A DNA stretch of 45,130 nucleotides, taken from the sequence record MK373771.1. One strand, written 5' to 3'. Shown here in pieces: positions 1-45,130 of the stretch (position 1 is the first letter of the stretch; each line of letters starts with the position of its first letter). Below the pieces are notes generated by a model. The model searched no databases and had not been told where the DNA came from. It saw nothing but the letters and a program-made list of their open reading frames with translations. The DNA is from Escherichia phage vB_EcoP_R4596. A program made the position numbers and the translations under genes.

Positions 1-285
1 TCTCGCCCTCGCCCTCGCCGGGTTGTCCCCATAGGGTAGCCTGAGGGAATCCGTCTCCGACGGGCAGGGCTGATGTACTCTTTGTACTAGCTTAGTAGTA
101 CACAAGGGCTGGCCTTTTGTTTTGCCGTGTACTAGTAAGGTGGAACGCTGTAGACGGCCTAGGACGGCCTAGGGAATGGCTTAGTGGCGGACAAGGTGAT
201 TGCCTTAGTGAAGCCTCTTAGCGCATTCCTGAGGCCATTCAGGGCGTTTATGAGGTATTGACAGGGTGTGCGTGGGTGTGGGCTA
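1..285. repeat. Left direct terminal repeat
   Basis: Bases 1-285 are identical to 44846-45130 by direct reading; the window ends inside the repeat, so its true length may be greater. Confidence 0.9.
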
Positions 286-289
286 TCTG

Positions 290-480
290 TTCGTTTCGTT
301 CACTCCGCTTGCGCTACGTTCACTCGCTCACGTGTACCTTAGGTTATTACTTGATGGATAGCTTAGGTTAGCCTTAGTGGATTACCTTAGTTATAACCTT
401 AGTGCTTAACTTAGTATTAGCTTAGTAGTGTACCTTAGTCAGTCTTAGTTTCTTCTCTTAGTGGTTGCATAGCTAAAGCT
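290..480. repeat. Array of short CTTAGT/CCTTAGT-like repeats next to the terminal repeat
   Basis: More than 12 irregularly spaced copies of (A/G)CCTTAGT(G/T) read directly; T7-like genomes carry short repeat arrays beside the terminal repeat. Confidence 0.6.
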
Positions 481-659
481 ATAAGATGCTAATAGGTCGC
501 GGTCGGTAGACCGCTAAAGAAAGAGAACAGTAATAAGATGCAGTAGGAGGAACACCAGAAACCTAGCCAACCTAAGCTATCCTAGCTCTATATCTATTGC
601 TTTTCCTTAGTCTAACACGTTAGACAACCTATCTTATTCTTAGTGATGGTAACTTAGTG

Positions 660-688
660 TTGACAAGATAATCTTAGTGTAATACTAT
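660..688 (+). promoter_or_regulatory. Candidate host sigma70 early promoter
   Basis: TTGACA (660-665), 17-bp spacer, TACTAT (683-688); lies upstream of the first early ORFs as for T7 A promoters. Confidence 0.45.
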
Positions 689-831
689 GCATCACGTAGG
701 CGGTGCTGAGGCACCTAGTAGCCAGCTAGTAAGGCATACGAAGAGACTAGCGCTTACATTGCTCTTTAACAATTTGCTTAGTGTAACCTATGTATGCCGT
801 GGTTAATTACTTATTGAATGAGGGATTAACT

Positions 832-1011
832 ATGACATTAAACAACCGTGAACTGTCCGTTCTCTTCACTATGTTGTGCTACATGATTCGTAACAACGAA
901 TTACTTACAGACGATGAGTTAGCCTTGTATCACCGCTTTCTTAACGAAGGTTGGACCGATACAGTTAATCAATACCGTAACATGATAGATGAGTTGAGGG
1001 AGGGTAAATAA
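832..1011 (+). CDS. Hypothetical early protein (59 aa from ATG 832; ORF track starts at 790)
   Basis: ORF with GAGGGA Shine-Dalgarno 6 nt upstream of ATG 832; no recognizable motif. Confidence 0.45.
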   Translation: MTLNNRELSVLFTMLCYMIRNNELLTDDELALYHRFLNEGWTDTVNQYRNMIDELREGK

Positions 1012-1235
1012 TGTATCAACATGAGGTATTCTTTGAATCAGCTAGCGAAGCTATTCGCTTCCGTGATGATATGATGCAAGCTGGTGTAGGCGTTGATGTG
1101 TATCACTATTTGATAGATTACGACACTGAATATCACCGAGTTACCTTAGTATCTGAGTATGACAACCAAGTCATTACTGAGTATCTAGGTAGTGAAGATT
1201 ATGATTACGATGAAGTAATCACGACAAATCTCTAA
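1011..1235 (+). CDS. Hypothetical acidic early protein (74 aa)
   Basis: ORF with strong GAGGGAGGG Shine-Dalgarno; start overlaps upstream stop (TAATG); Asp/Glu/Tyr-rich C-terminus. Confidence 0.5.
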   Translation: MYQHEVFFESASEAIRFRDDMMQAGVGVDVYHYLIDYDTEYHRVTLVSEYDNQVITEYLGSEDYDYDEVITTNL

Positions 1236-1243
1236 ATTAACTA

Positions 1244-1272
1244 TTGACAGCCACGGCATACAAGGTTACATT
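1244..1272 (+). promoter_or_regulatory. Candidate host sigma70 early promoter
   Basis: TTGACA (1244-1249), 17-bp spacer, TACATT (1267-1272). Confidence 0.4.
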
Positions 1273-1353
1273 AAGCACATAGCCGATAGGCAACGCTCTT
1301 TAACAATCTGGTTTGTGTCTTGATAGGCTAACTAACTAACTAAGGTAATTATT

Positions 1354-1464
1354 ATGAAAGGTTTAATTTGTGTAGAACGTATGGTCAATGGTAAACTTGA
1401 AATATTACCACTGGAAAACCAATCTAGCTTCAAAGAGTGGTATGGCTGTTTCTCACTGATTTAA
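1354..1464 (+). CDS. Small hypothetical early ORF (36 aa)
   Basis: ATG 1354 follows the CTAACTAACTAACTAA three-frame stop element and a weak AAGGT ribosome-binding site. Confidence 0.3.
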   Translation: MKGLICVERMVNGKLEILPLENQSSFKEWYGCFSLI

Positions 1465-1615
1465 GGTAAAGGCTGGCACTAGTCAGCCTATCAAGGCGCA
1501 AACCAAGCTCTTTAACAATTTGGATGGTAGCTTCTTAGTCTGGATAGGTTAAACCTAGGAGATTCTCTTGAGTCTCCTATAATGTAACCTAACTAACTAA
1601 ATGAGGATTAATAAC

Positions 1616-1975
1616 ATGGCTATGTCTAATATGACTTACTCTCAGGTTTACAACACCGCTCATGCTGCATTAGTTGAACGTATCTGGAATGATGATATTG
1701 ATTGTATCGATAACGCACATGATGCAATCCATGAGGTAGCGGACAGTGCTGTACCAATCTATTATGCTGACATCTTCTCAGTAATGGCGAGTGAGGGTAT
1801 TGATCACTTCTTCGAAGACTCCGGCCTGATGCCAGATACTAAGGATGTAACGGTCGTACTACAAGCCCGTATTTATGAACAACTCACCATTGATTTATGG
1901 GAACGTGTTCAAGATATGATTGTTGCGTACACCAATTACGCTGAGGATTCAGAAGAAGAAGAAGAGGAAGAATAA
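1616..1975 (+). CDS. ocr: Ocr-like DNA-mimic anti-restriction protein (T7 gp0.3 homolog, 119 aa)
   Basis: Translation MAMSNMTY...[44 protein letters not shown]...[15 protein letters not shown] plus poly-Glu tail matches T7 Ocr as recalled; GAGGA Shine-Dalgarno 8 nt before ATG 1616. Confidence 0.85.
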
Positions 1976-1977
1976 GG

Positions 1978-2091
1978 ATGGAAAAGCAATATAACTTTAT
2001 CTTTTCAGACGGTGTGACCCTGAAGTGTTCCCTGCGTTTCGCACAGATTCGCGAGGAAGTGCTAGGAACTACATACAAACTATTTAGCTGA
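1978..2091 (+). CDS. Small hypothetical ORF (37 aa)
   Basis: ATG immediately after the ocr stop, GAGGAAG upstream; no recognizable motif. Confidence 0.3.
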   Translation: MEKQYNFIFSDGVTLKCSLRFAQIREEVLGTTYKLFS

Positions 2092-2106
2092 CACTATAAG
2101 AGAGAG
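2081..2106 (+). promoter_or_regulatory. Divergent phage-RNAP promoter-like sequence
   Basis: TATTTAGCTGACACTATAAGAGAG resembles the ATTTACTGGACACTATAGAAG consensus but differs at the start site; followed by a 5' hairpin GGGCGCTCT-TGCG-AGAGTGCCC. Confidence 0.35.
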
Positions 2107-2166
2107 GGTTTAACAGGGCGCTCTTGCGAGAGTGCCCGATTAAATCAACTTAACGAGATATTAAAT

Positions 2167-2343
2167 ATGAAATACATACTGATTGCTATGTTTTCTGGCT
2201 TCATTGGCTATGCTGGTGCTTCTTATGACAACTACAGAAGTAAGCAATTGGCTGCTGAAAAGTGGGATAAAACCTATTTTGCTTGTATGAAACAAGGTAA
2301 TTTGATGCAAGATTGCATACTTAAAGCGCACAGCGAAGAGTGA
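2167..2343 (+). CDS. Small protein with hydrophobic signal-peptide-like N-terminus (58 aa)
   Basis: ORF MKYILIAMFSGFIGYAGASYD...; weak ribosome-binding site. Confidence 0.35.
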   Translation: MKYILIAMFSGFIGYAGASYDNYRSKQLAAEKWDKTYFACMKQGNLMQDCILKAHSEE

Positions 2344-2407
2344 TGAGCCTATAGCCTACTTAAGTGGGCTATGTGAACACCATTCATTAACTCAAAAGGT
2401 GACTATT

Positions 2408-3331
2408 ATGACTACTGAAAACACCCTCCTGTCTGTTCGTGAAGCTGCAACCGCTGAGATCAAGCAACACTTAGACAATATCGGCACTTCTTACATCAAA
2501 GTTGGCGCTTGTCTTAATGAGTTACGCGGTGACTTTGAAGGTCAAAAAGACTTTTTGGCTTATGTAGAATCAGAATTTGGAATCAAGAAAGCACAATGTT
2601 ACAAGCTGATGAGTGTAGCCCGTGTCTTTGAAGGCGATGATCGCTTTAAAGGCGTGGCGATGCGTGTAATGCTGGCACTTGTTCCTTTCGCTGATGAAAA
2701 TATCATCATGGAGAAAGCCGCAGAACTTGCCGCAGCGGGCAAGCTGGACACTAATGCCGTAAATGCCCTGATTGATCCTAAGAAAGAGACAAAGGCCGAG
2801 ACGGTACAATCTAAGGCTGAGGCGGTAAAACCGCAGGAGAATGCGACTGAGGCCGCAGAAACTATGCAAGGACATGCGACCTTTGAGGATTTCATCTTAG
2901 AGAAGGCGAAAGAGGAATTACAAAGTGTGCCGCCAGTAAGTGAGTCGGGTAACGACGAATCCGCACCGTGGGAAGATGAAAGCAAGCCGGAAGCGCCAAA
3001 GGCCGCGCCACTGGATAACACGGCTAACACGGAGAACGCCGCTATGTCTGGCCTACTGGCACAAATTAAGGCACTGACTGAGCAATTACAGGCAGCTAAC
3101 GACCGCATCGCCGCCCTAACCAGTGCACGGGAAAGTAAGAAAGCGGCTGCGCCTATGCTTCCGCAGTTTAAATCCTCTTGCTTCTACGCTCGCTTAGGCT
3201 TGAGCGCCGAGGAAGCAACGAAGAAAACAGCAGTGAATAAGGCACGCCGTGAACTGGTTAAACTAGGGTATGGTGAAGGTCATGAGGCATGGCCTTTGAT
3301 CTCTGAGGCAGTAGAAGAATTAACTAAGTAA
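2408..3331 (+). CDS. Hypothetical early protein (307 aa) with low-complexity acidic/Ala-rich centre and coiled-coil C-terminal region
   Basis: Long ORF; AAGGTGA Shine-Dalgarno before ATG 2408 (track begins at GTG 2399); no kinase or other motif recognized. Confidence 0.6.
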   Translation: MTTENTLLSVREAATAEIKQHLDNIGTSYIKVGACLNELRGDFEGQKDFLAYVESEFGIKKAQCYKLMSVARVFEGDDRFKGVAMRVMLALVPFADENIIMEKAAELAAAGKLDTNAVNALIDPKKETKAETVQSKAEAVKPQENATEAAETMQGHATFEDFILEKAKEELQSVPPVSESGNDESAPWEDESKPEAPKAAPLDNTANTENAAMSGLLAQIKALTEQLQAANDRIAALTSARESKKAAAPMLPQFKSSCFYARLGLSAEEATKKTAVNKARRELVKLGYGEGHEAWPLISEAVEELTK

Positions 3332-3394
3332 CCTTATCGGTGGCATCTTCTTAGGTGTCACCTATTAAGGTTTCTTTCACTAGGAGTAAACAAG

Positions 3395-6022
3395 ATGCAA
3401 GATCTACACGCTATTCAGCTTCAGCTTGAGGAAGAAATGTTTAACGGCGGTATTCGTCGCTTTGAAGCAGACCAACAACGCCAGATTGCATCAGGTAATG
3501 AATCCGATACGGCATGGAATCGTCGCCTGTTGTCGGAGCTTATCGCACCTATGGCGGAAGGTATTCAGGCTTATAAGGAAGCCTACGAAGGCAAGAAAGG
3601 ACGCGCACCGCGTGCACTGGCCTTCATTAACTGCGTAGAGAACGAAGTGGCAGCATATATCACGATGAAGATCGTAATGGATATGCTTAACACAGATGTA
3701 ACCTTGCAAGCCATAGCAATGAATGTAGCTGATCGCATCGAAGATCAAGTACGCTTCAGCAAGCTGGAAGGCCACGCCGCCAAATACTTTGAAAAAGTTA
3801 AGAAGTCACTCAAGGCAAGTAAGACTAAATCATATCGCCATGCGCACAACGTAGCGGTAGTGGCTGAGAAGTCAGTAGCTGACCGTGACACTGATTTCTC
3901 CCGCTGGGAGGCGTGGCCTAAAGATACCTTACTGCAAATCGGTATGACCTTGCTAGAAATACTGGAGAATAGCGTATTCTTCAATGGTCAACCTGTCTTC
4001 CTCCGCACCTTGCGCACTAATGGTGGCAAGCATGGTGTTTACTACTTACAGACCAGTGAGCACGTAGGGGAGTGGATTACAGCATTTAAAGAACATGTAG
4101 CGCAACTTAGTCCGGCCTATGCACCTTGCGTCATTCCTCCGCGCCCTTGGGTGTCCCCTTTTAATGGTGGGTTTCATACTGAGAAGGTGGCAAGTCGCAT
4201 CCGTTTGGTAAAAGGCAACCGTGAGCACGTCCGTAAGCTGACCAAAAAGCAAATGCCAGCAGTTTATAAGGCTGTTAATGCTTTACAGGCCACTAAGTGG
4301 CAAGTTAACAAAGAAGTTTTGCAGGTAGTAGAAGACGTTATCCGTCTCGACCTTGGTTATGGTGTACCTTCCTTTAAACCACTCATCGACCGCGAGAACA
4401 AGCCGGCTAACCCAGTGCCGTTAGAATTTCAACACTTGCGAGGCCGCGAACTGAAGGAAATGTTAACGCCGGAACAATGGCAAGCCTTCATCAACTGGAA
4501 AGGTGAATGCACCAAGCTGTATACCGCTGAGACTAAGCGCGGAAGTAAGTCGGCGGCAACCGTTCGCATGGTAGGACAAGCGCGCAAATACAGCCAGTTT
4601 GATGCGATTTATTTCGTGTATGCACTGGATAGCCGCTCACGCGTTTATGCGCAATCTAGCACACTCTCACCGCAATCAAACGACCTAGGCAAGGCGTTAC
4701 TGCGTTTTACCGAAGGGCAGCCGCTAAATAGCTCTGAGGCGCTTAAATGGTTTTTGGTGAACGGGGCGAATAACTGGGGTTGGGATAAGAAGACTTTCGA
4801 CGTGCGCACCGCTAACGTACTGGACGGCGAGTTTCAAGATATGTGCCGCGACATTGCAGCGGATCCTCTGACCTTTACTCAATGGGTAAATGCCGATTCA
4901 CCTTATGGATTCCTTGCATGGTGCTTTGAGTATGCTCGTTATTTGGATGCACTGGATGAAGGAACACAAGATCAGTTTGTGACGCATTTACCTGTTCATC
5001 AAGATGGTAGCTGTTCTGGCATCCAGCACTACAGTGCTATGCTACGCGACGAAGTGGGTGCGAAGGCGGTAAACCTTAAACCATCCGACTCGCCTCAAGA
5101 TATTTATGGAGCGGTTGCGCAGGTTGTTATCCAGAAGAACTACGCCTACATGAATGCAGATGATACAGAAACTTTCACATCTGGAAGCGTAACACTTACA
5201 GGTGCAGAACTGCGTAGCATGGCTAGTGCATGGGATATGATAGGTATCACTCGCGGCTTAACCAAAAAGCCGGTAATGACCTTGCCTTACGGATCCACAC
5301 GCTTAACCTGCCGTGAGTCAGTGATTGATTATATCGTTGATTTGGAAGAAAAAGAGGCACAAAGGGCTATTGCAGAAGGGCGGACGGCTAATCCGGTGCA
5401 CCCTTTTGACAATGACCGGAAAGACTATTTAACACCGGGTGCAGCTTACAACTATATGACGGCGTTAATTTGGCCTTCTATCTCTGAGGTTGTTAAAGCC
5501 CCTATAGTGGCAATGAAAATGATTCGCCAGCTTGCACGTTTCGCAGCTAAAAGGGATGAAGGATTAGAATACACCTTGCCAACTGGCTTCATCCTGCAAC
5601 AAAAGATAATGGCTACCGATATGCTTCGTGTATCCACTTGCTTGATGGGTGAAATCAAGATGAGTCTACAAATTGAAACGGATGTAGTGGATGAAACGGC
5701 AATGATGGGCGCTGCCGCTCCTAACTTTGTTCACGGTCACGATGCTAGTCACCTTATATTAACGGTATGTGACCTAGTGGATAAAGGTATTACCTCCATT
5801 GCAGTTATCCATGACTCTTTCGGTACTCATGCAGGCCGCACCGCAGACCTGCGGGATAGCTTAAGGGCAGAAATGGTGAAGATGTATCAAGGCCGTAACG
5901 CTTTACAACAATTGCTTGATGAGCATGAAGAGCGTTGGCTAGTAGATACTGGCATCCAAGTGCCAGAGCAAGGGGAGTTTAACCTTGAAGAGATATTAGT
6001 TTCTGACTATTGCTTCGCATAA
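3395..6022 (+). CDS. Single-subunit DNA-dependent RNA polymerase (T7 gp1-like, 875 aa)
   Basis: Motifs [38 protein letters not shown] and C-terminal ...DYCFA match the T7/SP6 RNAP family; GGAG ribosome-binding site. Confidence 0.97.
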
Positions 6023-6111: not shown

Positions 6112-6112
6112 T

Positions 6113-33800: not shown

Positions 33801-34658
33801 GGTTCAGAGAAAATTGTAGCTCGCTCTATCAATAAGAGATTAAAGCAGCACTTGATGGGTGAGAGACAATTACCTAAAGCAGACCTTGAAGAAGTAGGCC
33901 TAAGTGAAGATGTCATGAAAAGACTTAAGCGTCACTTTGATGACAACCCTCTGTACGCTGAGTACAATGGAGAAAAAGTTCGTATGCTGAACTTTGATGC
34001 TATGGAGCCAGACCTGAGAGAGACAGTGGGTGTTGCTGTGCGAAGAATGTCAGGCCGTCTTATTCAACGTAACTTCATTGGCGATGAAGGTATCTGGATG
34101 AATAAATGGTGGGGCAAGGCATTAACGCAGTTTAAGTCATTCTCTATTGTCTCTATTGAGAAACAGCTAATCCATGATTTACGAGGTGATAAGATTCAGG
34201 CTGCACAGATACTTGCATGGTCTACTTTACTAGGTTATGCATCTTATGCACTACAGATGCAGATGCAAGCGATTGGTAGGGAGGATAGAGACAAGTTCTT
34301 GAGGGATAAGTTTGACACACAGAACATCGCTATGGGTGTCTTTAATAAACTTCCACAAGTTGCAGGCTTTGGTTTAGCTGGTGATGCTTTGGCAACCTTT
34401 GGCCTAATGCCAGACTCCATGATGCAAGCACCGGGACGCATGGGTTTCCGTCAGCAAGGCTTTGGGGATTTGGTAGCAGGTGCTGGTGTAATAAGTGATA
34501 CAGTTAATTTGTCACAAGCACTGGTTAAGTATGCCAGTGGAGACGATGATGTCTCTACGAGGCAGTTGGTAGACAAGGTTCGTCGCCTTGTTCCTTTGGC
34601 AAATACTATTGGTGTGGGTCAGATGACTAAAGCCAGTGTAGATTTATTGGAGGATTGA
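30855..34658 (+). CDS. Large internal virion protein (gp16-like, 1267 aa)
   Basis: Size and position match T7 gp16; GGAGG ribosome-binding site. Confidence 0.8.
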   Translation: MVDSINQNWVAVTQRKLPPTFSQIAEAERKAEAQRANDKVFQTALESEWALYGGQRAYERHTTEFAEQEGYEVPESTKDELSKLYGYEIAQDIVKNVKSPEELQFRMSNAAADKDRADILARNGFTGFSAQIAAGILDPVGWAASLVAAPVAGAVKVGRLGRIIKTAALSGAENAALEAILAQGDYQRGVDDVLAAAGFGMIMGGTIGAATRERIASAGSRTAAERADAVVDDLDTVVKGADEFDSSAARAVREAMEYDAYMAARNYEPLRAREVDADMAILSHTDNLKANASVRMSASEKGQLKKQIRQLEAEAATLKGKKIDTVAEAAAAKGAPKSAADRLDLDVQKKALARRFDEPLADLQARLDELNAKLSRVNNVGKAKEELKRFSSLSREEQIKELGLDAPVRKVEMTRAVRDAIDAIRAERKKTPTEIHAEQVAEDAIKQRADDSVGAKRVEGSEIAGEQFDLSKNMEELMDDLAREAYQSEVRPINLKGLGSVSSVILNSENPVFRGLGLRLLENAQGGAYQGKTASILSDVYGNLIRHAERNRYNDGFSQFIKDNNLRAVDYLNPATTRDFNNQIYTAIVRGIPEDTPRGVKLAAEGIADKLKKALEIRKQAGERGFEDVQSAKDYIPVIYDGIKITEAVNKLGSSEAVIHLLSKGYQTGKYKLGKKAADALAKVQYIRASDSTLSSRVAFDRVVSQQQQAQLIEDLKRAGVPDHIIDNFIEGTELAEMAESVSNRAKASMGINTQAEYGGLKVQDLLNTNVGELAENYGKEAAGGAALAAMGFPTRQSVLNAIDAAERAGRNMAGSNAKAIKQLRAEAEMLRDAVKLIYGNTIDADPNSGIVRGTRRVREITGLLRLGQMGFAQIPELARAISKMGLGTVLKSIPATKFLRSRAARKGGTAQGELLEPELREMEELLGYIGEDNWLTGWNVRHDEFGETADNLGKLSAIIDNGLAMGSRINTILSGFKAVQGGSEKIVARSINKRLKQHLMGERQLPKADLEEVGLSEDVMKRLKRHFDDNPLYAEYNGEKVRMLNFDAMEPDLRETVGVAVRRMSGRLIQRNFIGDEGIWMNKWWGKALTQFKSFSIVSIEKQLIHDLRGDKIQAAQILAWSTLLGYASYALQMQMQAIGREDRDKFLRDKFDTQNIAMGVFNKLPQVAGFGLAGDALATFGLMPDSMMQAPGRMGFRQQGFGDLVAGAGVISDTVNLSQALVKYASGDDDVSTRQLVDKVRRLVPLANTIGVGQMTKASVDLLED

Positions 34659-37600
34659 TGAGTTATACATATACAGACCATGTAGCTAATGGCTCACAGG
34701 TTACATTCCCTTTTCGTTTTGCAGGCAGAGATAAGGCATACATTAGTGCGACAGATGTCCAAGTGGGTTTTGTAGAAGCAGGCACTTGGCTGCCAGCAAC
34801 AGGTTGGACGCTAAGTGGCACCAATCAGATCACTTTCTTAACCCCACCGACAGAAGGTAAACAAATACGAATCAGACGTATTGTAGATAAAATAAACCCA
34901 TATGCTTACTTCGAGCGGGGTAATGTTTTAGATATTAACTCTTTAAATAACTCATTCATTAAGAACCTGCAAGTCAGTCAAGAAATCCTTGATGGCTTCT
35001 TCCCAGAAGGTTTCTACTTCAAGACAGACTTAGACATGGGTGGTCATAAGATTATAAACCTACATGAGGGTTCTGAGTCAGGTGATGCTGTAAATTATGA
35101 TCAGTTTAAAGAGTTATCAGACCGCGTTAATGAGATTGAATCAGATTTAACAGGTTTGTCTCACAGAACAGTACCTATGTACTATATCGCAACTGGTGGA
35201 GAGTCACGTTGGGAGATCGGTCACTGGACTTTCGACGCTGCAATATTGTTTATTAATGGTGTATTCCAGAACCAAAACCTAGGAGCTTTTACCATCAGCA
35301 ACAACGGTTTTAACTTTGCAGAACCATTGCAGAAGGGGGATGAAGTATATGCCCTTGTAGGAAGCCGCATTGCAGCACCCGATGAGTATGTAACAATCTC
35401 TGACTTGAAAGACCCAGATAAAGCATGGAGGCTAATTGGACGTAAGTACCCATTTGCGACAGATGGAACTTTTATGTCAAAAGTGGTACATGATGTAGAC
35501 TACTCCAATATCTTCATTGGAGCATCAGGACTTAGTCAAGGCTTCTGTATTGTAGACACTCCGCAAGGTGCTCGCATGTTCTTCCATCAACCTATCCCAA
35601 GCACTAATAAGGTTCGTTTCGTTGAAACAACCTTTAACCCTGAAGGGGATAATGAAAATCCTTCTGTTATTTCATTCAGCCAGGAACTGGATGATATTGG
35701 ACACCAGACTGTGTGTGGTGTATATGAGGCGGGGGGTGTGCGTTTGTACACCTTGAGTGCAGATGAAAAATCTTATTATATCATAGATTGGTTAGGTAAT
35801 AATACGTCTAATACACATATGCGTAAGGTGCAGATCCCTACGGAGGGTATCTACTCTAAGGACCTATTTGTCTCAGTGGGCATGTCAGAAGATACTAAAA
35901 CGCTGGTATTCCATGCAACCACCAATACTCAGGCTTTTGGTAACAAGGATGATGCGAGAGCTATTTACCTCTTCGATAGAAAAACATTGGATTCAACCTC
36001 AACTAGAGGTCTTAAGCGTAGATTCGAAGTAGGAGCACCTGCTGCACCAGATATGGCCTTCCAAGGGGTTGCTTGTGATGACCGCTTCTTGTATATATAT
36101 CATGGATATAATGGTGTCCTGCTGTCTCACAAGATCTCCGTCTTCACCCTCTCAGGGGAGCATGTACGGGATATTCCCGTTGATAGTGTGCGTGTAAAAT
36201 ATGGAGAAAGGATGTATGGTGACGCAGATTTAGGATACCCTGTGTTGCAGGAACCGGAAGGTTTGGCAATGTATAAAGGGAAACTTTATATGTTGTGCAT
36301 GGATTTCTGGTACAAAAATGCAAGTGTAGTTACTTTCGCTGGAAGGACTTTTGCTACAAGAAAATCTTCAGCGTTTTCTGGGTACAGCCCATTACAATCC
36401 TCATACTGGACACCTACGAACCTAATACCACCTACGGGTGCACCAGAGTATAACAAGACTGCTACTTATTCCTGCTCTAATGCTACTAAGCTCAGTAAAG
36501 CTATTGTTAGCTTAGAAATAGATGATGGCACAGGCTTCCCTGCAAGTGTTGGGTGTTCTTTGCCAGAGAGTAGCGCCAGTGTATACCTAAACAACCGAGC
36601 GATGAATATGGCTATTGGCCCGAATGAAAACTTCCAGTTTGGGGTATTTCACCAGAACCTACAGTCATACAAAAACCTGTTACAGCTCAATAGAGAGAAC
36701 CCAAATACGGATGGATCAGCGGCTGTGTGGAGGTTGTTCGGAGGTGCGTTCACAGATGACATTCAGAATGAAAGATTTGTTCAGATTAAGCATAGACTTA
36801 ATCCCACACAAGATGCCATGGAGCTTCGTGCGGATGTTGACCTTACGAGCGGTGGTGGGATTAACTTGTATTCTATGAACGACTCTGCCTCTCCTGGTCG
36901 AGTAAGGCTATATTGTACTGACGGGTATTCTTATTGGTCAGCTCTACTGAGTCCTGCATCCCCATCTTTTCACCCTGATCAAGATAAGACTCTAAACTTA
37001 GGTACAGCAAACAACCGTTGGAACCTAGTCCATTGTCAAGGTATCCGTATCATCTCTAACGACGAGTTACAGAAGCAAGTCTTTCTTGAAACTACCCGTA
37101 AAAAAGGTGCACTACAGATCTCCACTTCCGGCAATCTAGGGGTGTGGGATAGTAGCGCAGGTACTTATGTTGTGGCAACCAGACCTGATGGTACAGGCTT
37201 TTCACAGGTAGAGATGAGCTTCAAAGGTGATGTTTTTCCTGAAATAAATAATACTTACAATTTAGGTCGTGAGAATAAGGCATGGGCTAATGCCTACTTT
37301 CAAAACGCACCGACTGTTGTCTGTGATGCCAGACTTAAAACAGATGCTAGGGAGTTAACAGCCGCAGAGAAATCCGCATTCTTAGAGATCTCTAAACTTC
37401 CGGCAGTTTGGCAATGGCTTGCTAAACTGGAAGTAGAAGGAGAGGATGCCCGCTTACACTCTGGATGTACTGTCCAAGCTGCTATCTCGGTTATGGAGAA
37501 ACATGGCCTAGATTGGACTAAGTATAGTGCTTTCTGTTATGACAAATGGGATGCCAAGGAGGCTGTCTATGATATAGTGGATGGTAAGGCTATCCTTGTT

Positions 37601-37741
37601 GAAGAGGCAGTTGAGGCTGGCGACCGTTATCGTCTTCGTAGAGAAGAGCTGATGTGGTGGTGCATGAAGGCACAGAATGCTTGGATTGAATCTATTGAGG
37701 GGAGGCTGGCGAAATTAGAAGATAAACTCAAGGAGGTGTAA
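34658..37741 (+). CDS. Tail fiber with T7 gp17-like N-terminal anchor and C-terminal intramolecular chaperone-like (peptidase S74-type) domain
   Basis: N-terminus YTYTDHVANGSQVTFPFRF...ISATDVQV...IRIRRIV follows the T7 gp17 adaptor pattern; C-terminal CDARLKTDARELTAAEKSAFLEISKL resembles the SDxRxK autoprocessing motif. Confidence 0.8.
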   Translation: MSYTYTDHVANGSQVTFPFRFAGRDKAYISATDVQVGFVEAGTWLPATGWTLSGTNQITFLTPPTEGKQIRIRRIVDKINPYAYFERGNVLDINSLNNSFIKNLQVSQEILDGFFPEGFYFKTDLDMGGHKIINLHEGSESGDAVNYDQFKELSDRVNEIESDLTGLSHRTVPMYYIATGGESRWEIGHWTFDAAILFINGVFQNQNLGAFTISNNGFNFAEPLQKGDEVYALVGSRIAAPDEYVTISDLKDPDKAWRLIGRKYPFATDGTFMSKVVHDVDYSNIFIGASGLSQGFCIVDTPQGARMFFHQPIPSTNKVRFVETTFNPEGDNENPSVISFSQELDDIGHQTVCGVYEAGGVRLYTLSADEKSYYIIDWLGNNTSNTHMRKVQIPTEGIYSKDLFVSVGMSEDTKTLVFHATTNTQAFGNKDDARAIYLFDRKTLDSTSTRGLKRRFEVGAPAAPDMAFQGVACDDRFLYIYHGYNGVLLSHKISVFTLSGEHVRDIPVDSVRVKYGERMYGDADLGYPVLQEPEGLAMYKGKLYMLCMDFWYKNASVVTFAGRTFATRKSSAFSGYSPLQSSYWTPTNLIPPTGAPEYNKTATYSCSNATKLSKAIVSLEIDDGTGFPASVGCSLPESSASVYLNNRAMNMAIGPNENFQFGVFHQNLQSYKNLLQLNRENPNTDGSAAVWRLFGGAFTDDIQNERFVQIKHRLNPTQDAMELRADVDLTSGGGINLYSMNDSASPGRVRLYCTDGYSYWSALLSPASPSFHPDQDKTLNLGTANNRWNLVHCQGIRIISNDELQKQVFLETTRKKGALQISTSGNLGVWDSSAGTYVVATRPDGTGFSQVEMSFKGDVFPEINNTYNLGRENKAWANAYFQNAPTVVCDARLKTDARELTAAEKSAFLEISKLPAVWQWLAKLEVEGEDARLHSGCTVQAAISVMEKHGLDWTKYSAFCYDKWDAKEAVYDIVDGKAILVEEAVEAGDRYRLRREELMWWCMKAQNAWIESIEGRLAKLEDKLKEV

Positions 37742-37935
37742 TGATAAACTCCGAACTGGTAGATAATGGTGTGAAGCTGGCGCCACCTGCATTAGTCTCA
37801 GGTGGGTACTTCCTCGGTATCAGTTGGGACAATTGGGTACTGATAGCAACATTCATTTATACAGTGTTGCAGATTGGCGATTGGTTCTATACTAAATATA
37901 CAATATGGAGGAATAAGCATGAGCGTGCACAATAA
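37741..37935 (+). CDS. Class II holin (T7 gp17.5-like)
   Basis: DNWVLIATFIYTVLQIGDWFYTK resembles T7 gp17.5 NEWFYVAAIAYTVVQIGAKVVDK as recalled; follows the tail fiber gene. Confidence 0.7.
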   Translation: MINSELVDNGVKLAPPALVSGGYFLGISWDNWVLIATFIYTVLQIGDWFYTKYTIWRNKHERAQ

Positions 37936-38218
37936 ACATGCAGCCACAGAGGATGAAGTAGGCATCCTTCATGGCGCTATTACGAAGATGTTTAATAAGA
38001 AAGCACAGGCTATACTGGACACTATAGAAGAAGACCCTGCTTCTGCTATGCACTTAGTGTCAGGTAAGGATATTGGAGCCATGTGTAAGTGGGTTTTAGA
38101 TAATGGCATTACTGCAACCCCTGCTGCACAGCAGGAAGAATCTAAGTTGTCTAAGCGTCTCAAGGCTATCAGAGAGGCGTCCAGTGGTAAGATCATTCAG
38201 TTTACTAAGGAGGATTAA
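37919..38218 (+). CDS. Terminase small subunit (gp18-like)
   Basis: Position immediately upstream of and overlapping terminase large; GGAGGA ribosome-binding site before ATG 37919. Confidence 0.55.
   Translation: MSVHNKHAATEDEVGILHGAITKMFNKKAQAILDTIEEDPASAMHLVSGKDIGAMCKWVLDNGITATPAAQQEESKLSKRLKAIREASSGKIIQFTKED
38010..38032 (+). promoter_or_regulatory. Phage-RNAP promoter inside the terminase small gene
   Basis: CTATACTGGACACTATAGAAGAAG. Confidence 0.6.
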
Positions 38219-40113
38219 TGGCTAAGGCAAGAGAATCACAAGCGGAGGCTCTTGCCAGATGGGAGATGCTACACGAGTTACAGCAGACCTTCCCTTATAC
38301 GGCAGAAGGTTTGCTTCTCTTTGCTGATACAGTTATTCATAATTTAATTGCAGGTAGTCCTCATCTGATTCGTATGCAGGCAGACATCTTGAAGTTCCTA
38401 TTCTATGGGCACAAGTATCGCCTCATCGAAGCGCCCCGTGGTATCGCTAAAACTACGCTGGCAGCAATCTATACGGTGTTCCGTATCATTCATGAGCCTC
38501 ATAAGCGTATCATGGTTGTATCCCAAAACGCCAAGCGAGCAGAGGAAATTGCAGGTTGGGTGGTCAAAATCTTCCGAGGATTGGACTTCCTAGAGTTTAT
38601 GCTGCCAGACATCTACGCTGGCGACCGTGCATCCGTTAAGGCATTCGAGATTCACTATACACTGCGTGGAAGCGACAAGTCCCCTTCTGTATCCTGCTAC
38701 TCTATTGAAGCAGGTATGCAGGGTGCTCGTGCAGACATCATTCTAGCAGATGACGTTGAATCTATGCAGAATGCGCGTACCGCAGCAGGCCGTGCATTAC
38801 TTGAGGAATTGACCAAGGAATTTGAATCTATCAACCAGTTTGGTGATATCATCTACCTTGGTACTCCTCAGAACGTCAACTCAATCTATAATAACCTTCC
38901 GGCTCGTGGCTATTCCGTGCGTATCTGGACGGCTCGCTATCCTTCTGTAGAGCAGGAGCAATGCTATGGTGACTTTCTTGCACCTATGATCGTGCAAGAT
39001 ATGAAGGATAACCCAGCCTTGCGAACAGGTTATGGCTTAGATGGTAACAGCGGAGCACCTTGTGCCCCTGAGATGTATGACGATGACGTACTGATTGAGA
39101 AGGAAATATCTCAGGGTGCTGCTAAGTTCCAGCTTCAGTTCATGCTTAACACTCGCATGATGGATGCGGATAGATACCCATTACGCATAAACAATCTAAT
39201 CTTCACCTCGTTTGGTACAGAGGAAGTTCCTGTGATGCCTACTTGGAGTAATGACTCCATCAACATCATTGGTGATGCGCCTAAGTATGGTAACAAGCCT
39301 ACAGATTTCATGTACAGACCTGTAGCTCGCCCATACGAATGGGGTGCTGTCTCCCGCAAGATTATGTATATTGACCCTGCTGGTGGCGGTAAGAACGGAG
39401 ATGAAACGGGTGTAGCCATCGTATTCCTGCATGGCACGTTCATTTATGTGTATCAGTGCTTTGGTGTACCTGGCGGATACCGAGAATCGTCCCTGAATCG
39501 CATTGTGCAGGCCGCAAAGCAGGCAGGGGTTAAAGAGGTATTCATTGAGAAAAACTTTGGTCATGGCGCGTTTGAGGCCGTTATAAAGCCATACTTTGAA
39601 CGAGAATGGCCTGTGACTATTGAAGAGGATTATGCCACTGGTCAGAAAGAACTCCGTATCATTGAGACACTGGAGCCGCTGATGACTGCGCATAGGCTTA
39701 TCTTCAATGCTGAGATGGTCAAGTCGGATTTCGCTTCAGTACAGAATTACCCTCTGGAATTGCGGATGTCTTATAGTTTGTTCCACCAAATGTCGAACAT
39801 CACTATTGAGAAGAACAGCCTTAGGCATGATGACCGCTTAGACGCTCTGTATGGCGCTGTGCGTCAATTAACTTCCCAGATAGACTATGACGAGGTTACT
39901 CGAATTAATCGCCTCAGAGCGCAGGAGATGCGCGATTATATACAGGCGATGAATACACCTAAACTTCGTCGGGCTATGCTGTACGGCGATTATGGTGATG
40001 AGCGAAGAACAACCAACACCTCCTTAGCGATGCAGCAGCGGGTTTACGGTCAGAATTGGAGGAGCCGCTCTGGGTCTAGAAATACACTTTCCTCAAGGAT
40101 TTCAAGGATTTAG
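38218..40113 (+). CDS. Terminase large subunit (gp19-like, 631 aa)
   Basis: Size and position; ATPase-like segments (IILADDVESM Walker B-like); AAGGAGG ribosome-binding site. Confidence 0.88.
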   Translation: MAKARESQAEALARWEMLHELQQTFPYTAEGLLLFADTVIHNLIAGSPHLIRMQADILKFLFYGHKYRLIEAPRGIAKTTLAAIYTVFRIIHEPHKRIMVVSQNAKRAEEIAGWVVKIFRGLDFLEFMLPDIYAGDRASVKAFEIHYTLRGSDKSPSVSCYSIEAGMQGARADIILADDVESMQNARTAAGRALLEELTKEFESINQFGDIIYLGTPQNVNSIYNNLPARGYSVRIWTARYPSVEQEQCYGDFLAPMIVQDMKDNPALRTGYGLDGNSGAPCAPEMYDDDVLIEKEISQGAAKFQLQFMLNTRMMDADRYPLRINNLIFTSFGTEEVPVMPTWSNDSINIIGDAPKYGNKPTDFMYRPVARPYEWGAVSRKIMYIDPAGGGKNGDETGVAIVFLHGTFIYVYQCFGVPGGYRESSLNRIVQAAKQAGVKEVFIEKNFGHGAFEAVIKPYFEREWPVTIEEDYATGQKELRIIETLEPLMTAHRLIFNAEMVKSDFASVQNYPLELRMSYSLFHQMSNITIEKNSLRHDDRLDALYGAVRQLTSQIDYDEVTRINRLRAQEMRDYIQAMNTPKLRRAMLYGDYGDERRTTNTSLAMQQRVYGQNWRSRSGSRNTLSSRISRI

Positions 40114-40137: not shown

Positions 40138-40271
40138 AGACCAAGAGAGTAAAAGGAATATTATAGGATAATATAGGATTACCTAGGTTATATAGGTGTA
40201 CCTTAGTATGGGTGTACTCCTGTACACCCTATTCTTACTTACTATTTACTTATACGTATAAGGAGTATTAG

Positions 40272-40553: not shown

Positions 40554-40570
40554 TAAAAGGAGAAGATAAT

Positions 40571-40858
40571 ATGTCTAAGTATGGCGATGCAGGTACGACT
40601 ACTGGTCAGGCTTTTCGTGTAAAAGCAGTACAAACTATTGCAACTGCAATCCCTATGCCTATCGTGGCAGAAGCTGACCTTAAAAAGAAAGATCATCCAA
40701 TTAATATTGAACACCTATCTGGTAAGCAGAAAGGTGCTATGGTGGTTGTAGATAAAGGAGATAATAGCCTTTATATTGCTATTGCACGTGGTTCTGCACC
40801 AACTGACCAGTGGGATGTAACTACTATGGAAGCTGTACCTGTAACACCAGGAGCTTAA
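40571..40858 (+). CDS. Paralog 2 of the triad (95 aa)
   Basis: AAAGGAGA ribosome-binding site; DLKKKDHPINIEHLSGKQKGAMVVV...LYIAIARGSAPTDQW. Confidence 0.65.
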   Translation: MSKYGDAGTTTGQAFRVKAVQTIATAIPMPIVAEADLKKKDHPINIEHLSGKQKGAMVVVDKGDNSLYIAIARGSAPTDQWDVTTMEAVPVTPGA

Positions 40859-40859
40859 T

Positions 40860-41549: not shown

Positions 41550-41893
41550 TGCTAAACGAATACTTCAAGCGTAAAGAATTTGCTTGCCGTTGTGGGTGCG
41601 GTACATCCACTGTTGATGCTGAGTTACTACAGGTAGTAACAGATGTGCGTGAGCACTTTGGTGCTCCTGTGGTTATTACTTCTGGTCATCGTTGCGCCAA
41701 GCACAATGCTAATGTAGGTGGAGCTAAGAACTCCATGCATCTTACTGGTAAGGCTGCTGACATTAAGGTCACTGGTGTTAGCCCAATGGAGGTACGTGCG
41801 TACCTATGCAATAAGTACACTGATAAGTATGGCATTGGTGCTTATCCTACTTTTACACATATCGACGTTAGAGGTAACAAAGCACGATGGTAG
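41549..41893 (+). CDS. Endolysin, peptidase M15-like zinc peptidase
   Basis: FKRKEFACRCGCG...ITSGHRCAKHNANVGGAKNSMHLTGKAADIKV...GIGAYPTFTHIDVR matches the M15 pattern (SxH...D...H). Confidence 0.8.
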   Translation: MLNEYFKRKEFACRCGCGTSTVDAELLQVVTDVREHFGAPVVITSGHRCAKHNANVGGAKNSMHLTGKAADIKVTGVSPMEVRAYLCNKYTDKYGIGAYPTFTHIDVRGNKARW

Positions 41894-42001
41894 GTTGTGT
41901 TGCATGGTGTGAACGCATGGTTGCTAAGGCTTCAGAGGAAGGCAACTATGCAGATTGGCAGAACTATTCGACTTTATTAGCTCAATGGAAAGGGAGGTGC
42001 A

Positions 42002-42151
42002 ATGAAAAAGCTGTTTAAGTCTAAGAAGGTTGTAGGTGCACTAGTTGCACTAGCAATTGCCCTTGTTTCTGTAGGACTTGGTGTAGACCTTGGTTCTGGC
42101 ACTGAGGGGTCTGTGACAGATGTAGTTTGCCAAGTAATTACTTGTGAATAA
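42002..42151 (+). CDS. Small transmembrane protein (49 aa), candidate second holin or lysis accessory
   Basis: Strong GGGAGG ribosome-binding site; MKKLFKSKKVVGALVALAIALVSVGLGV... has one predicted transmembrane helix. Confidence 0.45.
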   Translation: MKKLFKSKKVVGALVALAIALVSVGLGVDLGSGTEGSVTDVVCQVITCE

Positions 42152-42365
42152 ATTTCTTGAAGCACTTGCAGGTCTTATTGGCCTGCTTGTTGCAGCTAAG
42201 AAGAAACAGGAAGAGAAGGAGGCACAAAGTGAAGCGAATCATGCTAGCGACAATCCTGCTGATTGGTTCGCTGACCACTTCCGGGTGTCAGCAGGCGTTA
42301 CCAGAGAAGAAGGGTGTGAAGCCGCTGAAGCCGACGCTGACGGCAGTTTACGAAGTGGACGATAA
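42144..42365 (+). CDS. Putative i-spanin (Rz-like, short)
   Basis: N-terminal hydrophobic helix FLEALAGLIGLLVAA then charged region; overlaps the downstream lipoprotein ORF; GTG start without clear ribosome-binding site. Confidence 0.3.
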   Translation: MNKFLEALAGLIGLLVAAKKKQEEKEAQSEANHASDNPADWFADHFRVSAGVTREEGCEAAEADADGSLRSGR

Positions 42366-42438
42366 GGTATGCTTCAGTAAGCCTGACGCTACACAATTAG
42401 GTTTGTATATTCTTTCGCTAGAACGCGGGTATAATTAA
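42241..42438 (+). CDS. Putative o-spanin (Rz1-like lipoprotein, 65 aa)
   Basis: MLATILLIGSLTTSGC lipobox-like signal; Pro/Lys-rich body; +1 frame overlapping the Rz-like ORF. Confidence 0.4.
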   Translation: MLATILLIGSLTTSGCQQALPEKKGVKPLKPTLTAVYEVDDKVCFSKPDATQLGLYILSLERGYN

Positions 42439-42465
42439 TACATAACGTTATGTATCAGTGTCTTA

Positions 42466-42489
42466 TGATTTACTGGACACTATAGAAGG
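42466..42489 (+). promoter_or_regulatory. Phage-RNAP promoter upstream of the tailspike
   Basis: GATTTACTGGACACTATAGAAGGG followed by 5' hairpin CCGCTC-GTTTGA-GCGGAC. Confidence 0.75.
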
Positions 42490-42570
42490 GATAAAGATAG
42501 TGCCGCTCGTTTGAGCGGACTATTACTAGCCAATCTTCATAGGGAGGATTGGGAAGTAATAGGAGAATTT

Positions 42571-44391
42571 ATGGCTAAACTAACGAGAGTCACTGACTGG
42601 CTTGTTAAGGTGAAGTCTAGACTCATTGGTGCAGTAGAGAGATTGCTTGAAGATAAGCTATCTGACATGGTTAGTGTTAAAGATTTTGGTGCTAAAGGCG
42701 ATGGTGTTACAGATGATACACAAGCCTTCCTTGCAGCTTACAATGCTAAGAAGCAAACAGGAGGTAAGATCTACATACCGGAAGGTACTTACATTGCTTA
42801 CAATATCCCACTAGACAGTGGTATTTATTGGCAAGGTGCTGGTGTGGGTGCAACGACCATAACACAACCTAATGGTAACAACAAAGATATCTTTGTAACC
42901 AGAGACTTTAATACCCTCACAGGTGTTGGTTATCTTAAGGATGCACCTATTGGCTTCGGCATCAAAGATCTAACTGTTGATGGTAATTATCTTGCAGATT
43001 ATAAGAGTGCCGCCATTGGTGGTGACACTGTTATGAATAACGAGAAAGGCTATGGAGTTAAGATCTTTGGCTCTAAGTACACTATAGACATTGAGATAGT
43101 CAACTGTGCTCAGGTAGGTTTCTACAGCGAAGCTGGCGACTATACAGGTTATGGTGATGAGCAGGCTTGTCATGTGAACTTACGTGGTAGGGTCTTCGGG
43201 AAAGAAGCAATCGTGCATCGTGGCCCAGCTGACATAGAGTTTGGTCAGGTATTTATGGGGTCTGCTGCATGGTTGCCTACCCTAGCACAGCGCAGATCTA
43301 ATCTTGTCATGTCTGAACTCTTTGAAGGTGAACCTGTTCATGTCATGGTTACAGATGAGACAGAGGGTTATCATGGTCATCATGAGTTTGAGACTATGCA
43401 CCTTTATGGCAACCTGTCTGGTTATGGATATTATGCCAAAGGCACTGGTCGTCTGAAAGGCAACCATCTCATTTGTGAGAACTGTCGTGGTGGGTTCAAG
43501 TCAGATACCCGTACATGGGGTAAGATTAGTCTGTTAGAGTGTCATAACAATGGTCGTGCTCCATCTGCTTTAGCAGGAACTTTACCTAAGTTCTACGACA
43601 TTCATAACTTATCTCGTCAAGGTTTTGTTATTGATGCAGTAGTTCGTCGTGTTTCTGTAGAATCTTCTGAATATACTGCATTACGAGATGAAGGTCGTAA
43701 TAGTGTAGTAAGAATGTCTTACTTCGTAGCAGGTTCAGATGCAGAAGGTGCAACCTCTGGTAATATGGCAGAATTACTTAGTGAATCCTCTACGTTTGAT
43801 ATTAACTGTGTGAACACCAAAGACCATGCAGTTCTTCTGGAGGGAAAGGCTAACAAGGTTAATATTGTATCTAAGAACCACTCTGGTGACAAAGCATTGA
43901 TTAAGAGGGTAGCTGGCTCTGCTTCAGGTAACTTATCTAACTCTATAGAGATAACCTGTAATAATGCTTCCAGCATTATTCATCTTGATGGTCTTGTTAC
44001 CACTGAGCGATGGGATGTGTCTGGCTTGCTCAAAGAAGGTCAGACTATCTTCTCCTCTGATAGCTCAGTGATGGATTTGTATAACCGTGCAGTTGTTACT
44101 AACTTGTCTGTACGTATTGGTTCTAAATCCAAGAGTAGTAGAGATGTTGGTCGTGTTAATCTAGAGAATACAGCAGGGCAGAAGTCTGTTACTGTAGAGC
44201 ACAACTACTTCATTAAGCCTGATGCTTCTCAGATTACATTAGGTTGCTATGACCCTGACCCGACACTACAAGATAAGCTCAAGTACCTACGTGTAAGTAA
44301 TATCACAGATACTGACTTTACAGCAGTATACGAATTGGAGCAAGGTGAACAGCCAAGTGGCCCGATTGTTATGACTTGGGGTATCTTCTAA
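42571..44391 (+). CDS. Tailspike / putative polysaccharide depolymerase (beta-helix, pectate-lyase-like)
   Basis: VSVKDFGAKGDGVTDDTQAFLAAYNA is typical of right-handed beta-helix glycanases; likely ATG 42571 after AGGAGA (track begins at TTG 42511). Confidence 0.8.
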   Translation: MAKLTRVTDWLVKVKSRLIGAVERLLEDKLSDMVSVKDFGAKGDGVTDDTQAFLAAYNAKKQTGGKIYIPEGTYIAYNIPLDSGIYWQGAGVGATTITQPNGNNKDIFVTRDFNTLTGVGYLKDAPIGFGIKDLTVDGNYLADYKSAAIGGDTVMNNEKGYGVKIFGSKYTIDIEIVNCAQVGFYSEAGDYTGYGDEQACHVNLRGRVFGKEAIVHRGPADIEFGQVFMGSAAWLPTLAQRRSNLVMSELFEGEPVHVMVTDETEGYHGHHEFETMHLYGNLSGYGYYAKGTGRLKGNHLICENCRGGFKSDTRTWGKISLLECHNNGRAPSALAGTLPKFYDIHNLSRQGFVIDAVVRRVSVESSEYTALRDEGRNSVVRMSYFVAGSDAEGATSGNMAELLSESSTFDINCVNTKDHAVLLEGKANKVNIVSKNHSGDKALIKRVAGSASGNLSNSIEITCNNASSIIHLDGLVTTERWDVSGLLKEGQTIFSSDSSVMDLYNRAVVTNLSVRIGSKSKSSRDVGRVNLENTAGQKSVTVEHNYFIKPDASQITLGCYDPDPTLQDKLKYLRVSNITDTDFTAVYELEQGEQPSGPIVMTWGIF

Positions 44392-44398
44392 TATCAAA

Positions 44399-44422
44399 GC
44401 AGTGCGCAAGCACTGCTTTTCT
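44399..44422 (+). terminator. Rho-independent-type terminator after the tailspike
   Basis: GCAGTGC-GCAA-GCACTGC then TTTTCTC. Confidence 0.65.
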
Positions 44423-44489
44423 CGCAACTTCCCTTGAAGCAATCTAGCGATACCTTCAAGGGAATAGCTCAAGAAAGCAAGGAGGTTTG

Positions 44490-44639
44490 ATGCCGTTGAT
44501 CAAATCAGTTAAGCAATCTGCTGTACGCCAGAACACAGAAGAACTTATTCAATCAGGGCGTGACCCTAAGCAGGCTTATGCCATTGCCAAGGATGTACAA
44601 CGTCGTGCCATGAAGAAACCTTCTGCATCTTCTGCGTAA
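44490..44639 (+). CDS. Small basic protein (49 aa)
   Basis: Strong AAGGAGG ribosome-binding site; below the ORF-track length cutoff. Confidence 0.4.
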   Translation: MPLIKSVKQSAVRQNTEELIQSGRDPKQAYAIAKDVQRRAMKKPSASSA

Positions 44640-44709
44640 GCAGGTTCATATCTTAGTGTACACAAGGGCAGACTTAGGTTTGCTCTTAGTGTAATCCAAA
44701 GGAGGTAAC

Positions 44710-44808
44710 ATGGATAAGATTACTATTGATAAGCCAACATACTACCTGTTATGGGCTGGTTGTATCTTGAATGTCACAGGTTTTATCTTATGGTTGTTCA
44801 TGAAATAA
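44710..44808 (+). CDS. Small hydrophobic peptide (32 aa)
   Basis: AAGGAGG ribosome-binding site; MDKITIDKPTYYLLWAGCILNVTGFILWLFMK. Confidence 0.3.
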   Translation: MDKITIDKPTYYLLWAGCILNVTGFILWLFMK

Positions 44809-44845
44809 CCAAAGTGAAAATTTTGATATAGGCGTGTGTCAGCTC

Positions 44846-45130
44846 TCTCGCCCTCGCCCTCGCCGGGTTGTCCCCATAGGGTAGCCTGAGGGAATCCGTC
44901 TCCGACGGGCAGGGCTGATGTACTCTTTGTACTAGCTTAGTAGTACACAAGGGCTGGCCTTTTGTTTTGCCGTGTACTAGTAAGGTGGAACGCTGTAGAC
45001 GGCCTAGGACGGCCTAGGGAATGGCTTAGTGGCGGACAAGGTGATTGCCTTAGTGAAGCCTCTTAGCGCATTCCTGAGGCCATTCAGGGCGTTTATGAGG
45101 TATTGACAGGGTGTGCGTGGGTGTGGGCTA
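44846..45130. repeat. Right direct terminal repeat (identical to 1-285)
   Basis: Direct reading; truncated by the window end. Confidence 0.9.

Follow-up and report, generated by a model that had tools for sequence, protein, structure and literature searches.

In phage T7, a terminal repeat of 160 bp is accompanied by arrays of the motif CCTAAAG, with three copies inside the repeat, eight to its right (175-332) and two to its left. These arrays are said to have been named SRL and SRR by Dunn and Studier in 1983; we know of no demonstrated packaging role for short repeats of this kind, in T7 either, a phage that is packaged right end first. The Pac signal of T7 comprises PacB, which is recognised by gp18, and PacC, which is cut by gp19 (PMC9860248). 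Furthermore, class II pause and termination signals of T7 RNA polymerase contain a strictly conserved heptamer, ATCTGTT (bioRxiv 10.1101/2021.01.11.426313; 10.64898/2026.02.12.705533; PMC11617373), which acts on the non-template strand directly after A, C or T (bioRxiv 10.64898/2026.02.12.705533). Such a signal is present at the T7 concatemer junction (bioRxiv 10.1101/2021.01.11.426313; 10.64898/2026.02.12.705533), where the complex of RNA polymerase and lysozyme pauses and engages gp18 and gp19, and packaging starts (PMC3276506). In the SP6-like phage UAB_Phi78, a direct terminal repeat (DTR) of 179 bp has been confirmed by a Bal31 experiment (PMC4837284). Here we describe the ends of the genome of Escherichia phage vB_EcoP_R4596 (sequence record MK373771.1; the window, i.e., the whole stretch of 45,130 nucleotides that was analysed), which carry a 285-bp DTR and arrays of the hexamer CTTAGT. 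Together they form the end structure that is usual in the T7 supergroup, and nothing novel, in a phage newly added to the K1-5 group.

The window comprises a whole genome, in virion form and correctly oriented, of a K1-5/SP6-like podophage of the T7 supergroup, close to Vectrevirus. By megablast, its nearest relatives are K1-5-like podophages (Vectrevirus, Molineuxvirinae; also Zindervirus), and the closest full-length one is Raoultella phage vB_Ro_P3a (RoP3a, PQ197423), with 96% identity across 25 kb. PHROG matches recognise among its products a single-subunit RNA polymerase, a primase/helicase, a DNA polymerase, portal and capsid proteins, the small and large terminase subunits (TerS and TerL) and two tailspikes. 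TerL shares 35% identity with T7 gp19 (E = 8e-100); TerS gave no similarity to T7 gp18 by BLASTP. The first 285 nucleotides recur without a single difference, and in the same orientation, at the end of the window, and no match between prefix and suffix extends beyond that length; the sequence-only reading, which had announced a repeat of at least 285 bp, was therefore right, and its length is better stated as exactly 285 bp as deposited. The GC content of the repeat is 56%, that of the genome 45%. Along with the end repeat in one orientation, the window thus shows the conserved boundaries, the gp19-type TerL and the RNA polymerase with its own promoters that go with a short-DTR genome of the K1-5/SP6 type. 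A headful (pac) circularly permuted genome was considered and rejected, since the boundaries match conserved sites and TerL is of the T7 gp19 type.

The repeats of K1-5, SP6 and RoP3a share both boundaries of the window within 2 nt, the left one at (TC)TCGCCCTCGCC... and the right one at ...GGGCTA/TCTGTTC (the slash marking the boundary). K1-5 (AY370674, Vectrevirus) starts with (TC)TCGCCCTCGCCCTCGCCGGGTTGTCCCCATAGGG, has the same right end, a CTTAGT array to the right of the repeat and a pair to its left, and, like the window, 18 plus-strand copies of CTTAGT at the junction, with about 94% identity in the first kilobase. Its repeat, in the deposited linear form, is 234 bp long and lacks about 46 bp (86-131 of the window) and the additional CTTAGT that they contain, and its record begins 2 nt later. 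In RoP3a, a repeat_region of 283 bp is annotated, which shares insertion and arrays with the window; differences are seen just to the left of the repeat (GTGTGGGGTGTC/CTCGCC), at its right edge (GGGCTAATCTGTT) and in the tailspike region. SP6 (NC_004831, Zindervirus) agrees with the window in its boundary blocks, in its right-flank pair, in the single plus-strand ATCTGTT that marks the right edge and in an array of CTTAGT, of which the first 710 nt hold 12 copies, but its repeat is 174 bp long, holds a single CTTAGT and shows CCTGTGG repeats besides. The likeness extends to T7, where the repeat starts with TCTC, CCCCATAGGG lies about 25 nt inside it (about nt 27; 27-36 and 44872-44881 in the window), ATCTGTT stands at the right edge and TerL is homologous. 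Unlike the window, in which no such elements were found, T7 has its phiOL and phiOR promoters beside the junction.

When 12 junctions of Vectrevirus, Zindervirus and Klebsiella phages are aligned and scored by the mean identity to the window base, the strongest conservation of non-coding sequence falls on the left boundary, from -43 to +36 (Table 1), followed by an interior of the repeat that is variable (0.35-0.70) and by a right-boundary block at 277-296 (0.87). The left-boundary block is the sole part that blastn still finds in Klebsiella, Pectobacterium and Lelliottia phages, and it is a candidate left-end cleavage or recognition site, similar to pacC/pacB. RoP3a and K1-5 begin 1-2 nt later than the window, and SP6 2 nt earlier; the physical left end would therefore be uncertain by about 2 nt, and the terminal A at 285/45130 by 1 nt. 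It has been described that run-off sequencing adds an A (PMC4925675). Altogether, the structure very probably represents a T7-type terminal redundancy with its concatemer junction, the ends being placed by homology.

The repeat is longer than the 160 bp of T7, as the sequence-only reading remarked, but this is nothing out of the ordinary, because boundary-to-boundary lengths run from 172 to 331 bp among the subfamily relatives fetched (236-305 bp inside Vectrevirus), and repeats of 148-493 bp have been reported for T7-like phages (PMC4925675). The insertion at 86-131 explains most of the gap between 285 bp and the 234 bp of K1-5, with small indels besides. Positions 88-125 are a diverged copy of a right-flank unit at 44649-44683 (local alignment score 33, where shuffles reached at most 23). 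This duplicated unit of 38 nt, TA.CTTAGT.GTACACAAGGGC...TTTGC, has its source in the right-flank intergenic spacer and its copy inside the DTR, in the very insertion that separates the repeats of 283-305 bp from those of 234-238 bp (K1-5 and 6948). A stable hairpin in the insertion was also considered, and the DNA fold (z = -1.9) was not compelling. As a side observation, in the locus of the Klebsiella phage K22PH164C1 (~1560-1650) runs of 13-14 G lie inside the inferred terminal repeat, with a shorter run at ~1860; they lengthen this repeat to 331 bp and could be a sequencing or assembly oddity.

We define the junction region as 44392-44845 plus 1-831, i.e., 1,285 nt with the repeat counted once. 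It contains 18 plus-strand copies of CTTAGT, against 0.56 expected from the remaining genome (Poisson 3e-21), and no minus-strand copy. When the region was simulated with a first-order Markov model, 0.9 copies were seen on average and never more than 7; CTTAGT is its top over-represented hexamer. Over the genome and both strands, 59 copies compare with 30.6 +/- 5.5 in dinucleotide-preserving shuffles, the surplus being wholly terminal. The copies lie within the repeat, in an array that follows its left copy, dispersed farther to the right, and before the right copy (Table 1). In the left-flank array all sites share one orientation, with a spacing of 10-13 bp (mean ~12; one 24-bp gap) and 35% GC. 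The right-flank repeats lie between two small ORFs, in a spacer of 70 nt, at 156-194 nt upstream of the right DTR copy. Arrays inside and beside both ends had been claimed from the sequence alone; repeats do occur inside and on each side, but the distribution is strongly lopsided, with a ten-site array plus five copies to the right of the repeat and two or three to its left.

The layout parallels that of T7. The three, eight and two copies of CCTAAAG inside, to the right and to the left of the T7 repeat correspond to three, eight and two copies of CTTAGT in the window, to which two CTTAGG and five dispersed copies are added, and one CTTAGG on the left. Exact copies in T7 are spaced by 13 bp or multiples, those of the window by 10-13 bp. 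The T7 ends have no CTTAGT; the arrays of the window are thus an architectural counterpart that belongs to a different sequence family. The examined junctions of Vectrevirus and Zindervirus, together with one Klebsiella phage, hold 14-20 plus-strand and 0-2 minus-strand copies of CTTAGT, of which 1-4 fall inside the terminal repeat depending on the relative, and a right-flank pair spaced 33-34 bp. Importantly for the question of function, motif columns of the left-flank array are 96.5% conserved and their spacers 73% (10 relatives, Mann-Whitney p = 1e-13), which argues for selection on the motif itself. Motif columns of the right-flank repeats also exceed their neighbours (0.73 vs 0.57, p = 0.015), and for the dispersed copies the excess is weak and not significant (0.85 vs 0.81, p = 0.07). 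A literature search, which did not cover the SP6 and phiYeO3-12 genome papers, gave no relevant earlier description of CTTAGT arrays.

In the Klebsiella phages FBKp16 and K22PH164C1, boundaries and layout are kept and CTTAGT is missing; CATAGTG(C) stands at the aligned positions (locus ~1450-2300), and the terminal repeat holds CTGTGGATAA 7-8 times. The motif is thus CCTAAAG in T7, CTTAGT in SP6 and K1-5, and CATAGTG in some Klebsiella phages. Since Klebsiella phages include both the CTTAGT and the CATAGTG types, the motif tracks the lineage of the phage and not its host, and this in turn points to a reader encoded by the phage.

The right edge of the repeat carries a second signal. ATCTGTT has a single plus-strand copy in the 45-kb genome, which begins at the last base of the DTR (the minus strand has five), and it is preceded by T (284-291), one of the bases that go before the heptamer in class II signals. 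The complete genomes of SP6 and K44PH129C1 likewise have a single plus-strand heptamer, in the same boundary place; in T7, the heptamer lies at nt 161, just past the 160-bp repeat.

Taking these elements together, the following sequence of events may be proposed. Replication would yield head-to-tail concatemers with one copy of the repeat at each junction. The phage RNA polymerase, moving rightwards over the junction, would pause at the ATCTGTT that marks the right edge, and the terminase, formed by TerS and the gp19-like TerL, would be recruited and would cut or nick at ...CAGCTC/TCTCGCC and ...GGGCTA/TCTGTT. Repair synthesis would then duplicate the repeat, so as to leave a copy at each end of every packaged genome. 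The CTTAGT arrays, as counterparts in the SP6 group of the CCTAAAG arrays of T7, would organise or address the terminase complex. What the sequences show directly is the repeat, the conserved boundaries, the single pause motif, the enrichment and selective conservation of the hexamer, and the homology of the terminase; the pausing, the cutting positions and the duplication of the repeat, as well as any role or reader of the arrays, are inferred. Taken on its own, a packaging role of the arrays is a tentative proposal, drawn by analogy, to which we give somewhat less than even weight. If packaging also proceeds right end first in this phage, one may speculate that the large array would be reached shortly before the left end receives its terminal cut, and would assist termination. 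The sequence-only reading had seen in these ends a T7-like structure for the processing of concatemers, and the T7-supergroup machinery, the shared boundaries, the 3/8/2 layout and ATCTGTT bear it out, with the role of the arrays put forward by analogy.

Several observations nevertheless weigh against this picture. With regard to the pause, the two phages of the CATAGTG type, which are the most distant Klebsiella relatives, read ATCTGTC and not ATCTGTT at the boundary, and the SP6 group may lack the lysozyme that is the partner of the pause in T7. No consensus phage promoter was found near either end of the window. The 12-13 phage promoters, which share ATTTACTGGACACTATAGAAG (a 21-mer), are all internal, and the last good core, at 42477-42485, lies ~2.4 kb upstream of the junction; moreover, transcription would have to read through a terminator-like hairpin (44396-44424) to arrive there. 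That transcription enters the junction is thus something we infer, because of this distance and of the intervening hairpin. As to the ends, the deposited left ends of the relatives differ by -2 to +2 nt, and those of the window rest on homology. As to the arrays, no selective conservation is seen for the copies within the DTR (0.65 vs 0.62 in their surroundings, p = 0.2), several CTTAGT copies overlap the early promoter, and a search for the reader by ortholog profiling, in which two CTTAGT-type genomes were compared with two of the CATAGTG type, did not single out TerS: its identity falls from 73% to 60% in the CATAGTG type, as does that of many proteins.

The overlap with the early promoter leads to an alternative that we consider unlikely, in which the CTTAGT sites would act not in packaging but in early transcription or genome entry, modulating an early promoter of the host RNA polymerase or protecting or anchoring the entering left 830 bp. 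Five copies surround the predicted sigma-70 promoter, one adjoining its -35 element (CTTAGTGTTGACA) and one within its spacer, and the juxtaposition of motif and -35 is retained in distant phages with the other motif (AATAGTGGTTGACA). Furthermore, every copy points in the direction of transcription, and the region has no phage promoter. Some of the copies that overlap the promoter may indeed serve transcription instead. However, the array with the greatest density and the best conservation stands ~200 bp upstream of the one promoter that is predicted, copies are also present inside the repeat and at the right end, which enters last, and T7 has an equivalent array upstream of its early promoters. 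Moreover, the motif follows the phage lineage, yet no phage protein is present as the leading end enters. A related candidate, CTTAGT as an element of the phage promoters themselves, was rejected: it is absent from their consensus, and none of those promoters lies in the terminal regions.

According to another possibility, the repeat would be an artefact of assembly or record editing, in a genome either permuted or circularised by the assembler, where the overlap marks the opening of the contig. Many close relatives have been deposited permuted or as "circular", with a single interior copy, and the 100% identity of the two copies is expected of an overlap too. Against this, the ends fall on the two most conserved blocks, common to K1-5, SP6 and RoP3a, which were deposited as linear, repeat-bearing genomes, and to T7; short exact repeats are what accompanies a TerL of the T7 gp19 type, and the DTR of the SP6-like UAB_Phi78 was confirmed by Bal31 (PMC4837284). 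An arbitrary assembler overlap would not hit both conserved blocks, which makes an artefact very unlikely. Finally, the arrays could be without function, left behind in non-coding DNA by recombination or by slippage during replication, as the variable copy number and repeat length among relatives, the 38-nt unit duplicated from the right flank and the unselected copies within the repeat would allow, but the contrast between hexamer and spacers in the left-flank array, the strict orientation (18 plus vs 0 minus) and the retention of an array in T7 and the SP6 group alike, at the same positions though with a different motif, leave this idea highly improbable.

Returning to the concatemer-processing reading, the arrays are most likely, by analogy with T7, the sites at which a protein encoded by the phage binds and organises the junction, TerS being the prime suspect. 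TerL and the boundary sequences are common to T7 and the window, in contrast with TerS, which is without detectable similarity to gp18, and TerL is about equally conserved in both motif types (79% vs 76%). One could think of a modular packaging signal, made of fixed boundary blocks and ATCTGTT, read by the conserved TerL and RNA polymerase, and of a swappable "address" in the array, for which a rapidly evolving protein such as TerS would be the reader; the motif of the address would have been switched between lineages and could set specificity between co-infecting relatives. This model is a doubtful one.

Other non-coding elements of the terminal regions stand out by their conservation. At 611-626, ~35 nt upstream of the -35 element of the predicted early promoter, there is a 16-bp palindrome, GTCTAACACGTTAGAC, kept in 12 out of 12 relatives with changes that preserve the symmetry (GTCCAACACGTTGGAC in K22PH164C1); Klebsiella phages have a similar element, GTCCAACGTGTTAGAC, in the right flank. 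From its sequence, it resembles the operator of a dimeric protein. The strongly conserved non-coding block at 481-547 contains a direct repeat, ATAAGATGCTAATAGG (481-496) and ATAAGATGCAGTAGG (533-547), which flanks a perfect hairpin, GCGGTC-GGTA-GACCGC (499-514), and is invariant in all relatives of the CTTAGT type. At gathering thresholds, Rfam recognised no structured RNA anywhere in the window, this block included. Inside the DTR, a TTGACA at 258-263, 22 nt short of the right edge, is kept in all CTTAGT-type relatives as TTGACAG(G/C)GTG; a sigma-70 promoter starting from it was rejected, as no acceptable -10 hexamer lies at 16-18 nt.

Among the neighbouring genes, the first tailspike is encoded at 34655-37741 (1028 aa). 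The second tailspike-like gene (42511-44391) has, over at least its final ~800 nt, no megablast match in the phage collection: with 43600-45130 as the query, matches begin only at 44399. This suggests, at the level of sequence, a receptor-binding domain that is absent from close relatives. The ORF at 44487-44639 encodes a basic product of 50 aa (phrog_2423, function unknown), for which SP6 and K44PH129C1 show 88-90% identity, far over the genome average. The ORF was not found in the two CATAGTG-type phages, i.e., it tracks the CTTAGT type, and DNA 88% identical to it lies next to a tail-fibre gene in St11Ph5, an unrelated N4-like phage of 72 kb. Because of this second location, it is more likely a passenger of the tailspike cassette. 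BLASTP yielded no alignment between its product and that of T7 gene 19.5.

Table 1. Position and description of the features of the window that are discussed in the text (a slash marks a repeat boundary).
Feature	Coordinates	Strand	Description
Left DTR copy	1-285	+	Exact prefix = suffix, 285 bp; starts TCTCGCCCTCGCC as in K1-5, SP6 and RoP3a
DTR insertion, ~46 bp	86-131	+	In the window, RoP3a, 101118B1 and PDP21P3; not in K1-5 or 6948 (alignment)
In-DTR short repeats	91-222	+	CTTAGT 91, 180, 204; CTTAGC 217; CCTAGG 158, 168
Class II pause/termination signal ATCTGTT	285-291	+	Preceded by T; on the right DTR boundary, GGGCTA/TCTGTT
Left-flank array	338-462	+	CTTAGG 338, 362; CTTAGT 373, 386, 398, 410, 421, 434, 444, 457
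Dispersed CTTAGT(G), n = 5	606-782	+	606, 639, 653, 673, 777; early-promoter/leader region
Predicted host sigma-70 early promoter	660-688	+	TTGACA, 17 nt, TACTAT; consensus match only, 10/12
Single-subunit phage RNA polymerase	3395-6022	+	phrog_414, E = 4e-290; presumed reader of ATCTGTT
Small terminase subunit (TerS)	37874-38218	+	phrog_891, E = 8e-26; candidate reader of packaging signals
Large terminase subunit (TerL), T7 gp19 type	38218-40113	+	PHROG terminase large subunit, E = 2e-240
Terminator-like hairpin	44396-44424	+	AAAGCAGTGC-GCAA-GCACTGCTTT then TCT; perfect 10-bp inverted repeat, after the tailspike gene
Right-flank short repeats	44652-44690	+	CTTAGT 44652, 44685; CTTAGG 44673
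Left-boundary block	44803-44881	+	Most conserved non-coding block; unique/DTR junction ...AAAATTTTGATATAGGCGTGTGTCAGCTC/TCTCGCCCTCGCCCTCGCCGGGTTGTCCCCATAGGG; conservation 0.82-0.96
Right DTR copy	44846-45130	+	100% identical to 1-285, same orientation; carries the in-DTR repeats too (CTTAGT 44936, 45025, 45049)

For annotation, the value of these results is that the record can be taken as a complete genome, in virion orientation and with correct ends. In turn, the coordinates are usable for packaging-competent constructs, transducing plasmids and rebooted synthetic genomes of K1-5-like therapeutic phages. Furthermore, the short-repeat arrays of the T7 type have been known for a long time, and the unique ATCTGTT at the edge of the repeat, along with the switching of the motif between lineages while the hexamer is conserved, could guide work on them.

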